A DNA stretch of 64,000 nt from a virus (taxonomy: Duplodnaviria > Heunggongvirae > Uroviricota > Caudoviricetes). The stretch is from the IMG/VR virus record IMGVR_UViG_2541047938_000006; one strand, 5' to 3'. The first letter of the stretch is position 1. Each line of letters opens with the position of its first letter. Shown piece by piece: positions 6,108 through 14,486 of the stretch. The notes beneath the pieces are model-generated. The model had not been told where the DNA came from. It ran no database searches and saw nothing but the letters and a program-made list of their open reading frames with translations. The position numbers and the translations under genes are program-made.

Positions 6108-9100
6108 TTAATCCACTCCCACTTTTTTGTTGTACTCGCGGTTAAAGCGATCCACGGCAACCTTCATATCCCGCTCTACCGATTTCACCATCGCCGCCTG
6201 CTGCGCCAGACTGAGAGAACTGTCGGCATAAATGGCATCGCGCTGTTTGCGCAAATCCTTCAGTCTCTTCCGGGTATCCTGCATAAGCCCGTTCATCAAC
6301 AATTTTCCGTTGTTCTCGTCAATGAACGCCGTTCTTTCTGCACCGGTCAGACTCTTCAGCTCTGCGTGATACTGCGCAACCTCTGTCATCCGGTCGTACA
6401 TCTTCTGCTGGTCTGCATACGGCATCACCTCACCCGAAATTTTCCCCAGGAAGGGCACCTGCTGCTCCGGTATATCAATACCGTTCAGCGATTTCACCGC
6501 CGCATCTGTGGTTTTGGAAATGAAGCGCCCTGTCCCTCCGGAGATATAGTCAATCCAGAATTTCAGCGATTCCGGTGTGATATCCACCGCGCCGGGACGA
6601 TACTGGCTGCCACCTGAGAACGCATTCAGCCAGGATGCAAACGCCTTGTACGCCTCAGGCGTTGAACGTCTGCCCAGTTGGCTGTCCGGTTTCGGTGTGC
6701 CAAATGGCATGTTCTCCTGGTAAATCTGCGCCCCCATGAAGTTTTCATTCATGGCAAGGTTCGCAAACGGACGCAGAATGGTCGGCGCTGCATTTTTCAG
6801 CAATGCCCCGGACAGTGTTTCCGACGTTTCACTGCCCACAGGACTGAATGCCCCCAGGATACCACCGACAACATTACCGGCAGCACGTGAAGCAGTCAGG
6901 TCGCCCGCTGCCACACCTTCAGCAGTATGCCCGAGCAGGAAGAAAACGTTGTACCCGTAAGGCAGAGGAATACTCCAGTACTCTCCGGCCTTGCCCCCGA
7001 ACACCGATTTCATAATGACGAGGTTACGCTCTTTCACATGAGACGGCACCTTGTCATACCAGTTAACCCCGTCATCATCCTCCCCCGCAACACTGCGGTT
7101 AAGCGAGCCAAGCAGATAACCCGCTCCCACAGCTGCAAGCGCGATTTTCTGCGGTACATTGAGATTCTTCCAGCGAAGGCGCTCCGGTAACGGCCCGTCG
7201 CCATTAAGATGTCCGAGCGTTCTCACCAGGTTTGCGGTCCCCTGAATGCTGGCGTTGGCAAACATATACAGCGAGTTCATCAGCGCTCCCTGCTCACCAC
7301 GACGGTTAAAGTTCACCGTCATGTTTTTGGCAAGAGATGCCGCCTGCTGGCGTGACAAACCGGCATCACGGGCGTGTTTATAGGCAGAAAGACGCAGAGC
7401 GTTTTCAACCGCGCCGTTGGCATCCTCGACCAGGTTCAGGAACGAATGCCATGCACCGATACTCTGGCCTTTCCATCCTCCCTTCGCCAGCGATACAAGG
7501 CGATCCATTTCCTTCTGCTGGCCTTCAAGGTCACCCATGTTAAACCAGCCGGTTTTACCTCCATCCTCAACAAACTCTTTCCACACCTTCTGCCACTGCG
7601 CACCGTTGCCCGTGAGGGTTTTACCACGCAGACTGGCGTATACGGCAGACATGGCAGACCGGCTGTCTTTCACCACAGCCAGGGCGGATAAGTTATCCAG
7701 CCCTTTCAGTTTACCGTCGCTCCTTCCCTGCTCAGCCTTCAGGTTCATCACCGCCGTCTGCACGTCACGGATGAAGTTACTGACCAGAAATTCCGGGTTA
7801 TACGACGTGTTCACCGTTGCCAGGAAACGGTTAACTTTCCCCAGCGTACGGATTACGGCGTTACTGGTTTCCGGCCCCATGTTCTTCATCGCACGCATCA
7901 GGCGCGGGTCATGGAGTTTGATGTAGTAAGTTTTGCCGTCCTTTTTGGTGGTGAAGTAGCGATCCGCCATCATTGCCATAGGCACCGGACGTTCAACAAC
8001 TTCGCGACGGGTTTCGCCGGTTTCCGGATCAACACGCTCTGCAATCGCCCGCATGGTGTCCGGTTTGTCATCAGTGAATACCTGCCAGTAATCCTTATCG
8101 GGATTATCCTGCACCAGTTTCAGGAAGGCGTTACCCACTTCGTTTTTGCGATTGCGGATCAGCGATTCGCTCAAATCCTGTATCGCCTGAGTGGAAGGAG
8201 ACTGTGCGCGGGATGCACGCCCCATGGCCTGCCTGCTTTCACGTCCGCCGATGGTGAAGCCCTTACCTGTACGGGGCAGTGACACCACACCGTCAACATC
8301 CTGACCTTTCAGGGGAACGTAGTAACGGTAGGCGTTCTGCCAGGCATCCACCACACCGCTCTCTTCCAGTCCGGCCTCACGGATAAGCTCACGGCGACGG
8401 GCCAGCATATCGTCAACAATCCCTGCCAGACGGTCATACTGTGCCTGTTTGCCACTGTTACGCACACGCTGCATGATTTCCGCCGCTTCCGCGTTGGTCA
8501 TCCCCGAACCGCCGTCCGGCATTTTCGGGTTGATTTTCGCGATATGCGCGTTACGTTCCGGCGCGTGACGGGCGTAGAGGTACTCATCCAGATCGGCCTG
8601 CGCAATTTTGTAGTCCGCCAGTAATTTAGCCAGTGGCTGAACGTAGCGCTCCTTCATCACGTTCAGGTCGTTTTCCGCCTTCCCGTGGAAGAGTTCTTCC
8701 GCCATATAAGCGTTGTTACTGTCGTCTATTTTTCCGCCAGTTTTACGGATATTCTCCTGAACAGCTTTCAGCACCTGGAATTTATCCTGCATCTGGCGCA
8801 CAAAACGCGATGCAATTGTCTCTTCCGGTGTCAGACTGCTGGTACGGGAGTAATACGGCCCCTTGCGAATATCTTCAGGATAGAGTATTTTATCTACAGA
8901 GCCGCGATAAGAACGCTCCTCTTTGGGCAATTGGAGCCCACTGTACTGAGGGTTATCGCGGCTTAATTTCTCCTTCCGGTAAAGCGTTAATCCAGCCATT
9001 TCCATACTTTTCAGCTTTTTCCCGTTTTCCGTACCGTAAACAGATGCCACCTTGTTAATTTCCAGACGTTTATCTGTCGCCTTCATATGCACTGCCGAGA

Positions 9101-14486: not shown

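Follow-up and report, generated by a model that had tools for sequence, protein, structure and literature searches.

A giant cysteine-free protein of a 933W-type prophage: a candidate ejected virion protein with predicted protease and RNase domains

Short-tailed Shiga toxin (Stx)-converting phages spread Shiga toxin genes among Escherichia coli. One very large protein of these phages has been met twice. In phage Sp5, deletion of open reading frame (ORF) 80 (ECs1242; 2,793 amino acids, aa) abolished plaque and lysogen formation on K-12 MG1655, and the defect was rescued in trans in the induced donor; mutant heads looked normal, DNase-protected phage DNA was at the wild-type level, and labelling by an anti-fibre antibody was absent (data not shown), which the authors read as a tail-assembly defect (Mondal et al., 2016; PMC5155283). 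Deletion of ORF79 gave an identical phenotype (PMC5155283). In phage phi24B, gp47 (vb_24B_48) was present in purified virions but absent from the cryo-electron microscopy (cryo-EM) map, and it was proposed to be an ejection protein (bioRxiv 10.64898/2026.04.10.717836). Here we describe the same protein, in the same gene position, in virus record IMGVR_UViG_2541047938_000006, of which a stretch of 64,000 nucleotides (nt), given as one strand and called the window below, was analysed; features on the minus strand read right to left. In contrast to the copies in Sp5 and phi24B, this giant ORF lies in an apparently stx-negative prophage.

We consider it rather probable that the giant ORF encodes an essential internal virion protein of the 933W/Sp5/phi24B-type podophages, which is ejected together with the DNA and carries protease and RNase cargo. 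From the orthologues it is known that the protein is expressed late, is found in mature virions as mostly very large species, and is needed for infectivity and not for DNA packaging. Judged by homologue comparison, its architecture is a chassis of an N-terminal domain and a C-terminal module placed around a probably disordered linker and predicted enzymatic cargo. The cargo comprises an LPD5 module, a CLCA_X-type zincin (HExxHxxD plus Glu), a second zincin (HExxxH plus Glu) and a PBECR/MuF-C RNase-like domain.

The virion evidence comes mainly from phi24B, whose gp47 shares 93.5% amino acid identity with the giant protein and keeps all of its motifs. In the supplementary table of that study, gp47 received 10,962 peptide-spectrum matches (PSMs), a number exceeded by the major capsid protein (MCP) alone (bioRxiv 10.64898/2026.04.10.717836). 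About 40% of the particles in that study were empty. Successive gel slices gave 2188, 1686, 1187, 1260, 663 and 447 PSMs and then lower numbers; the portal (80 kDa) peaked in slice 5 and the MCP in slice 11, and 62% of the gp47 signal lay above the portal, the top slice being the strongest and slice 4 forming a shoulder. The peptides came from every region of the protein, and those flanking the three internal domain junctions were ordinary tryptic peptides; therefore, the whole polypeptide is in the particle, largely unprocessed. A rough estimate from PSMs per length, based on sample EA1833 (assumed to be a batch digest) with portal, nozzle, spike and needle as references, gives about 11-23 copies of gp47 per virion. 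A more distant relative, JC1 gp69, was detected in CsCl-purified virions with 51 unique peptides, and the portal, MCP and head-closure proteins of JC1 are homologous to those of 933W. A 2025 proteomics paper on phages of enterohaemorrhagic E. coli (PMC12502783) held nothing specific on the giant protein. The first-pass annotation of the window, made from the letters alone, had supposed that a protein of this kind is packaged in the capsid, and the abundance of its orthologue in purified virions agrees with this.

The most conserved parts of the giant protein are the non-enzymatic end modules and not the cargo. The C-terminal 912 aa aligned with 34-58% identity over 97-100% of their length in proteins with differing upstream domains, namely ART-PolyVal, methyltransferase, InPase, a tail-tip domain, a P22-portal fragment and LPD5/LPD1. 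Since it aligns at full length under such unlike cargo, the C-module behaves as a single unit. It stands nearly alone in proteins of 981 and 1,042 aa, and its structure model (predicted local distance difference test, pLDDT, 86.8; predicted template modelling score, pTM, 0.83) is mostly helical with one small beta domain; LPD38 covers 206 of its 912 residues. By profile search, 44 of the 98 long representatives carried the C-module, every time at the extreme C-terminus, with coverage of profile positions 7-880 in BcepIL02 gp70 (E 1e-144) and 3-889 in the giant protein of Vibrio phage D62. It was found by tblastn in 353 phage records, the non-Stx phages among them including about 102 Vibrio phages (~60 kb), 31 Ralstonia phages (GP4-like), 10 Burkholderia phages (Bcep22-like) and several Bacillus podophages; the copy described here is 97.4% identical to that of VT2-Sakai.

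When the N-terminal 1,040 aa were searched exhaustively with HMMER, a domain of aa ~5-500 was recovered in 44 other proteins of 1.7-4.7 kaa, in all of which it is confined to the first ~450-500 residues. In the same search the block of aa 870-1045 always stood ahead of LPD5. The usual order in relatives is N-domain, variable region, LPD5 with zincin 1, zincin 2, an optional MuF-C domain and the C-module; zincin 2 mostly adjoins the C-module directly, and freestanding proteins of 454-489 aa consisting of zincin 2 and MuF-C also exist. Moderately hydrophobic or glycine-zipper segments (aa 180-203, 392-425, 2448-2466 and 2514-2548) all fall in the end modules. The giant gene is the last late gene not only in the window but also in P13374, BcepIL02, Vibrio D62 and a metagenomic phage contig. 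Two unusual carriers were noted. An Amphritea sp. contig encodes a 981-aa, nearly pure C-module (10001-12946) within a small element that bears an integrase gene and has no recognisable virion genes close by, which is at odds with a purely virion-structural role. A 1,594-aa protein predicted on a 9-kb assembled contig appears to be a fusion of a P22-type portal fragment (N-terminal), MuF-C and the C-module, and represents an assembly artefact or else a portal-fused variant such as Iyer et al. mention.

Four Pfam domains were recognised in the giant protein, LPD5 (aa 1050-1199), LPD1 (1360-1439), MuF_C (1749-1840) and LPD38 (2475-2680). Several unrelated domains, LPD domains included, are thus combined in one polypeptide that is encoded among virion genes, as in polyvalent proteins, and the earlier assignment to that class was sound. 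These domains cover about 19% of the protein, which RefSeq names "LPD5 domain-containing protein"; the first-pass description of the domain content as essentially unannotated was therefore right only in part. The protein contains ALAHEWFHSLDN, an HExxH motif (HEWFH) from aa 1283, and LRHEIIHHAMEH, a second one (HEIIH) from aa 1550, both noticed in the first-pass annotation, where 0.04 would be expected by chance from its own His and Glu content. Both lie outside every Pfam match, and MPTase-PolyVal and the other Pfam peptidase models missed the domains around them, with M76 as the sole match (E 0.22). Searches of the Protein Data Bank (PDB) chains with the whole protein and with two alignment profiles returned chance helical matches only, and one word-indexed homologue search returned mostly assembly fragments. 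Homologue alignments, the CLCA_X profile and structure comparison nevertheless place both motifs within conserved zincin-like domains, as had been supposed, and show domains of enzymatic type in what might otherwise have been a structural tail or needle protein.

All 91 homologues covering motif 1, the most distant at about 44% identity, have it unchanged, within a conserved G-x-G-S-L-A-H-E-W-x-H-x-x-D-N-Y-F. An alignment of 58 sequences showed H1262 (AHYEP), D1290, E1374 and E1381 to be near-invariant; D1290, E1374 and E1381 were at least 90% conserved, and both Glu lie on the helix 1372-1390, as fits a third metal ligand. The NCBIfam profile CLCA_X (NF041907) matched aa 1181-1436 over positions 3-245 of 250 (E 1.5e-44), at a score of 152.4 bits, below the cut-off of 260 set for the standalone subfamily of ~250 aa. 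By this profile comparison zincin 1 is a domain-level relative of CLCA_X that lies outside the standalone subfamily; it matches CLCA_X end to end but is embedded in a protein of 2,792 aa, always behind an LPD5 module. CLCA_X is a zincin family of prokaryotes, phages and plasmids with an HExxH...D site, is significantly related to the self-cleaving metalloprotease domain CLCA_N, and often occurs within proteins of more than 1,000 aa (Lenart et al., 2013; PMC3650047). An AlphaFold2 (AF2) model was made of aa 1041-1880 (mean pLDDT 78, domains mostly 85-98). In its zincin 1 core, a helix (1213-1234) is followed by three strands (1248-1273), the second of which bears H1262; next come the HExxH helix (1281-1298), an insert and, last, the Glu helix (1372-1390), and most of the core has a pLDDT above 85. 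In phage-type metallopeptidases (MPTases), a His ends strand 2 and an Asp lies three residues past HExxH (Iyer et al., 2017; PMC5512222), and the model of zincin 1 fits this description. As the Glu helix overlaps the Pfam LPD1 match, LPD1 is the C-terminal part of the peptidase domain. The LPD5 region ahead of it (aa 1041-1170, window ~10977-11366) is beta-rich in the model, and its weak Foldseek matches to OB-fold proteins (RPA14/32 and RMI1-RMI2, E 0.7-2) hint at a nucleic-acid-binding fold.

The second site needs a correction. The letters of an HExxH motif are present, but relatives with 20-26% identity keep L-x-H-E-x-x-x-H-x-G, together with an invariant Glu ~50 residues further on (E1606, in Q-A-x-E-F-x-A). 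This combination of HExxxH and a downstream Glu was conserved in 22 relatives save two exceptions. On this alignment the conserved site is HExxxH (H1550, E1551, H1555), and its appearance as HExxH is a chance of two adjacent histidines. HExxxH is another zincin variant described by Iyer et al. (2017; PMC5512222). Domains 1 and 2 aligned with each other in register but weakly (hhalign P 0.008), as did zincin 2 with the HELVH region of the N4 virion RNA polymerase (vRNAP; P 0.005). Both domains resemble solved zincins in structure, and we regard both as predicted metallopeptidase domains on the strength of alignments and models.

The MuF_C family (PF18819) matched aa 1749-1840 with 66.1 bits against a gathering score of 27.6, and MuF-C is a PBECR domain by the definition of Iyer et al. 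(2017; PMC5512222). Of 38 non-redundant relatives, at least 80% keep H1751 and S1815, which correspond to the catalytic His near the N-terminal helix and the Ser/Thr of strand 4 in this family; S1815 closes the fourth strand of the AF2 model, which has the BECR fold and matches RelE/BrnT-type RNases. Because these residues are conserved and S1815 sits at the end of strand 4, this MuF-C copy looks catalytically intact, as a predicted RNase-like domain. In the phi24B preprint MuF-C was taken for a peptidoglycan-degrading metallopeptidase; we reject this assignment, as the domain is BECR RNase-like and the peptidases lie elsewhere in the protein.

Possible cleavage sites for the peptidases were also noted. 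An aromatic-Ser-Arg/Lys motif (GYSR, FYSRKG, QYSRSG, YYSRTS) occurs at aa 378, 1448, 1679 and 1879 (window ~8847-13355), the last three copies exactly at domain junctions. Four copies compare with 1.3 expected, a mild enrichment (P~0.05), and the stricter pattern was defined post hoc. Ahead of the C-module, the strict form was present in 10 of 47 relatives, and a looser version sits 20-35 aa before the module in about 20 of 45. The phi24B peptides show intact Y-S bonds at these junctions, and a cut after the Arg would be indistinguishable from trypsin cleavage. The junctions are thus possible, candidate sites.

Absence of cysteine is a further trait of the giant protein, which has none in 2,792 residues, where 23 would be expected from the mean of 0.83% in the other late proteins of the prophage (P~8e-11). 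The four ORFs directly upstream (420, 83, 150 and 218 aa) also lack it, as do the giants of Vibrio D62 (3,066 aa) and BcepIL02 (gp70, 4,667 aa) and 82 of the 98 long relatives. Among known internal proteins, cysteine is absent from N4 vRNAP (0/3,500; N4 9524-22524 region), N4 gp51 (644 aa) and gp52, T7 gp15 and gp16, and P22 gp7, gp20 and gp16. In the same phages, cysteine does occur in portals, coat proteins, terminases and most tail proteins. Proteins that have to unfold to exit the head and then pass the oxidising periplasm would be expected to lack cysteine, and this absence may serve as a flag for ejected virion proteins that can be read from sequence only.

The protein was compared with several described systems. 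The giants of Bcep22, BcepIL02 and JC1 (Lessievirus) and of Ralstonia GP4-like phages are likewise encoded by the final gene of the morphogenesis module and preceded by a virion protein of 420-530 aa; they have the ~900-aa C-terminal module in common with the giant protein (27% identity; profile E 1e-144), and they are cysteine-free and detected by virion mass spectrometry. They differ in length (4,500-4,700 aa) and in a reported helicase- and methylase-like cargo, and the N-domain was undetected by phmmer in BcepIL02 gp70. P1 DarB is also a large protein that is packed into the head and enters the cell along with the DNA, but has methyltransferase and helicase motifs. No [DNS]PP[YFW] methyltransferase motif, no Walker A or DE[AVCS][DH] motif, and no Pfam or NCBIfam match to methyltransferase, helicase or ATPase families was present in the giant protein, which corroborates what the first-pass annotation had reported for DPPY/NPPY and Walker A. 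A DarB-type methyltransferase/helicase identity was therefore rejected, as in that annotation, but its contrast with DarB-type proteins was too sharp, since the C-terminal 912 aa are the very module that ends the "DarB-like" Bcep22/GP4 giants. DarB is moreover dispensable on non-restricting hosts, whereas the orthologue of the giant protein is essential.

The polyvalent proteins of Iyer, Burroughs, Anand, de Souza and Aravind (2017) share zincin MPTase hubs, PBECR/MuF-C, LPD5, LPD1 and the phage-only LPD38 with the giant protein. In that framework such proteins would be accessory counter-defence effectors; the giant protein, by contrast, is essential, and the LPD catalogue includes its end modules only in part. 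N4 vRNAP (gp50, 3,500 aa) is another cysteine-free giant in which an internal MPTase (HELVH) is followed by a C-terminal region of ~1,000 aa; it is packaged in the capsid and injected, and the N4 virion holds few copies of it, against an estimated 10-25 for the giant protein. It differs in being an RNA polymerase, for which the giant protein has no counterpart, and homology of the C-module to its encapsidation region could not be demonstrated (E 0.013, fragmentary). The T7 (gp14/15/16) and P22 (gp7/16/20) ejection proteins are internal, cysteine-free, encoded late near the tail genes and essential for infectivity and not for packaging. In contrast to the giant protein they are three separate proteins of 20-144 kDa, their mutants still form tailed particles, and one of them, T7 gp16, includes a lytic transglycosylase domain. 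The PDB and structure comparisons showed no similarity in sequence or fold to these solved ejection proteins.

Considering these results, a plausible course of events can be proposed. The giant protein would be loaded into the procapsid and remain unordered in the head. Upon release of the needle, it would leave in an extended state by way of the portal/nozzle channel, and this would account for its complete lack of cysteine. The end modules would mediate incorporation, the path across the envelope, or both, probably together with the cysteine-free ORF79-type partner, and after ejection the zincins may cut their own polypeptide or host proteins, freeing the RNase-like cargo in the cell.

Several points weigh against ejection with enzymatic cargo. 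The loss of fibre labelling in the ORF80 mutant is unusual for a pure ejection protein. No self-cleavage of gp47 is visible, its junction peptides being tryptic and most of its signal lying above 80 kDa. The copy number is rough, as it stands on PSM counts and on the assumption made for EA1833. Scaffolds, needles and some fibres also lack cysteine, so the trait is unspecific. The protein has no strong transmembrane segment (best Kyte-Doolittle window 1.57), and no lytic transglycosylase or other cell-wall hydrolase domain was found in it by Pfam and profile search.

The loss of fibre labelling suggests an extra role in completing the portal vertex, and for this reason a core that is never ejected remains a serious rival, although we hold it to be unlikely. 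Such a core would sit on the portal inside the head and serve portal conformation, tail attachment and DNA organisation, its enzymes acting only during maturation, for example in self-processing. The protein is abundant in virions yet not ordered, its loss strikes a step after packaging, and the MPTase-containing C-terminal region of N4 vRNAP is needed for encapsidation (PMC5512222), all of which would suit a head core. However, the cysteine-free signature is common to proteins that exit the capsid, an intact RNase-like site has no obvious substrate in a DNA-filled head, and the cargo of relatives (ART, DNA methyltransferase) has cytoplasmic targets.

A low probability also attaches to a pure polyvalent effector of anti-defence or host takeover, injected only to disable restriction, CRISPR or other immunity and without a part in particle building or DNA delivery. 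The domain set is typical of polyvalent proteins (PMC5512222), the same C-module is combined in relatives with ART, methyltransferase and pyrophosphatase cargo, and the Bcep22-like relatives are annotated as DarB-like. Yet phage grown in K-12 needs the Sp5 orthologue on K-12 MG1655, where counter-defence should be unneeded, the end modules are more conserved than the cargo, and neither the giant protein nor its 420-aa partner matched the defence-system libraries (PADLOC included) or anti-restriction families. Since the Sp5 deletion kills infectivity on plain K-12 while the heads are filled with DNA, anti-defence cannot be the whole story and is probably an incomplete account of function; a core structural or delivery role is therefore indicated.

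The proposal of Mondal et al. (2016) that the protein is a tail-assembly factor or energy-using chaperone, possibly an AAA+ ATPase, that builds the short tail on the filled head accounts for DNA-filled heads without anti-fibre labelling and draws on a reported COG1483 match (PMC5155283), but it is very improbable for a protein that has neither a Walker A motif nor an ATPase family in Pfam or NCBIfam, that is unexpectedly among the most abundant in mature virions for an assembly chaperone and lies outside the resolved phi24B tail, the fibre result itself being negative immuno-EM given as "data not shown". The AAA+ ATPase assignment was rejected on the same motif and family searches.

Returning to ejection with the DNA, a bolder version can be put forward tentatively, as a possibility that we would not yet bet on. 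The N-domain, the C-module and an ORF79-type partner may form an unrecognised ejection chassis that replaces the three-protein ejectosome of T7 and P22, with swappable cargo released by zincins. This chassis would be common to 933W-, GP4-, Bcep22- and Vibrio-type podophages, which would exchange cargo (RNase, ART, methyltransferase, pyrophosphatase, helicase) in its middle. The embedded zincins would cut after the envelope has been crossed and release the cargo into the cytoplasm, and a single polypeptide would be both DNA conduit and effector-delivery device.

The features of the locus are collected in Table 1. The giant ORF is a single 8.4-kb reading frame of 2,792 aa with its own ribosome-binding site, as first annotated. 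Its DNA matches 186 phage records (90-96% identity, at least 80% of its length covered), and every one of these is a short-tailed Stx-converting phage or a close relative (933W, VT2-Sakai/Sp5, phi24B, P13374, Min27 and others). The late genes of the window are terS, terL, portal, a 335-aa gene, MCP, small structural genes, fibres, a nozzle-like protein and a further fibre, then lom/bor-type morons, five ORFs of 133-420 aa and the giant ORF as the final late gene, which is the order of 933W-type Stx phages. It does close the late cluster, as had been stated, but the morons and five small ORFs separate it from the tail genes, and a terminator-like hairpin stands between the 420-aa gene and its ribosome-binding site. 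This hairpin is presumably read through by the Q-antiterminated late transcript, by analogy with lambdoid phage biology, and without antitermination it could reduce expression of the giant gene relative to the upstream genes. No tape-measure candidate was found, in agreement with the first-pass annotation; the remaining late ORFs are all of 714 aa or less, as suits a podovirus lacking a tape measure.

Table 1. Features of the giant gene, its encoded domains and its upstream neighbours (window positions)
Feature	Position	Strand	Remarks
Giant ORF	6108..14486	-	ATG start at 14486; 2,792 aa + stop; orthologue of Sp5 ORF80/ECs1242 and phi24B gp47
Ribosome-binding site GGAG	14492..14495	-	5 nt ahead of ATG
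Intrinsic-terminator-like hairpin GCCCGAC-CATCGT-GTCGGGC + T7	14499..14525 (stem-loop 14525-14506)	-	7-bp GC-rich stem
N-terminal domain, aa 1-450	13137..14486	-	HMMER vs 44 other giants; hydrophobic aa 180-203, glycine-zipper-like aa 392-425
Pro/Glu/Gln-rich linker, probably disordered, aa 451-869	11880..13136	-	From composition; homologues in close relatives only
Block aa 870-1045 + Pfam LPD5 aa 1050-1199	10887..11879	-	Ahead of zincin 1 wherever detected in mapped relatives
Predicted zincin domain 1, CLCA_X type, aa ~1201-1450	10137..10886	-	H1262, H1283-E1284-x-x-H1287-x-x-D1290, E1374/E1381
Active-site motif HEWFHSLD, aa 1283-1290	10617..10640	-	91/91 homologues
Predicted zincin domain 2, HExxxH variant, aa ~1470-1665	9492..10079	-	H1550, E1551, H1555 + invariant E1606
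HEIIHH motif, aa 1550-1555	9822..9839	-	Distant relatives keep HExxxH
MuF-C/PBECR domain, aa ~1690-1850	8937..9419	-	Predicted BECR-fold endoRNase, H1751 + S1815
C-terminal module, aa 1881-2792	6111..8846	-	One confident, mostly alpha-helical fold; includes LPD38 aa 2475-2680
Upstream partner gene, 420 aa, without cysteine	14571..15833	-	= Sp5 ORF79, phi24B gp48
Three small cysteine-free ORFs (83, 150, 218 aa)	15844..17210	-	phi24B counterparts detected in virions

The 420-aa partner is homologous to the gene before the giant gene in Vibrio phage D62 (BLASTP 2e-13) and showed no BLASTP similarity to BcepIL02 gp69. Its phi24B counterpart is abundant in virions, PSMs per length suggesting about 35 copies per virion. 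The phi24B preprint labels gp48 "transcription factor?" and dismisses a transcription-regulation factor, presumably gp48, as a likely contaminant (bioRxiv 10.64898/2026.04.10.717836). The 83-, 150- and 218-aa ORFs correspond to an 86-aa ORF, gp50 and gp51 in the virion mass spectrometry of phi24B, and the 83-aa ORF has a glycine-zipper (YMGG-like) match and is named "bacteriocin" in RefSeq. The four cysteine-free upstream ORFs (14571-17210) are candidate co-ejected proteins.

The prophage has its best DNA match in phage PhiR12_3 from ECOR13. Where P13374 has stxA/stxB, no late-strand ORF of at least 110 aa was present (45430-46850), and the prophage appears to be an stx-negative member of the 933W-type phages. 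An IS21-family element (istA 42128-43669, istB 43681-44430, plus strand) lies at 40838-45429 inside an esterase gene of the nanS-p/gp84 type, which is split into an N-part (DUF1737 and SASA, 44488-45429) and a C-part (DUF6645, 40838-41947). In phi24B the product of this gene is a capsid decoration protein, and the prophage may thus be decoration-defective. Between the giant gene and the host flank (2657-5957) are accessory genes for an AntA-type antirepressor (2657-3292), a PAPS-reductase/DUF3440 protein (3489-4715) with weak BrxP/DndC matches, which overlaps a 214-aa ORF (4700-5344), and a SocA/Panacea antitoxin-domain protein (5433-5957, minus strand); a PAPS reductase adjoins the giant gene in Bcep22-like phages also. 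A molybdopterin oxidoreductase gene at 18-2117 (plus strand) presumably belongs to the host chromosome, which places the end of the prophage between about 2117 and 2657.

The gene, its essential function and its presence in the virion are already known, and its domain families have been in the literature since 2013 and 2017. This study contributes a full domain map that includes two peptidase domains unlabelled by Pfam, the HExxxH correction, an intact RNase site, N- and C-terminal chassis modules common to Vibrio, Ralstonia and Burkholderia podophages, and the family-wide absence of cysteine. Two published guesses, the AAA+ ATPase and the "MuF-C metallopeptidase", are corrected. The giant gene accounts for about 14% of the phage genome and is essential, and its product probably amounts to several megadaltons per particle. 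The domain map names candidate residues (H1283/E1284, H1550/E1551/H1555 and H1751/S1815) and predicts that the essential function resides in the two end modules and not in the enzymes. If true, chassis plus cargo would be a general way of delivering DNA together with changeable enzymes in a large group of podophages.

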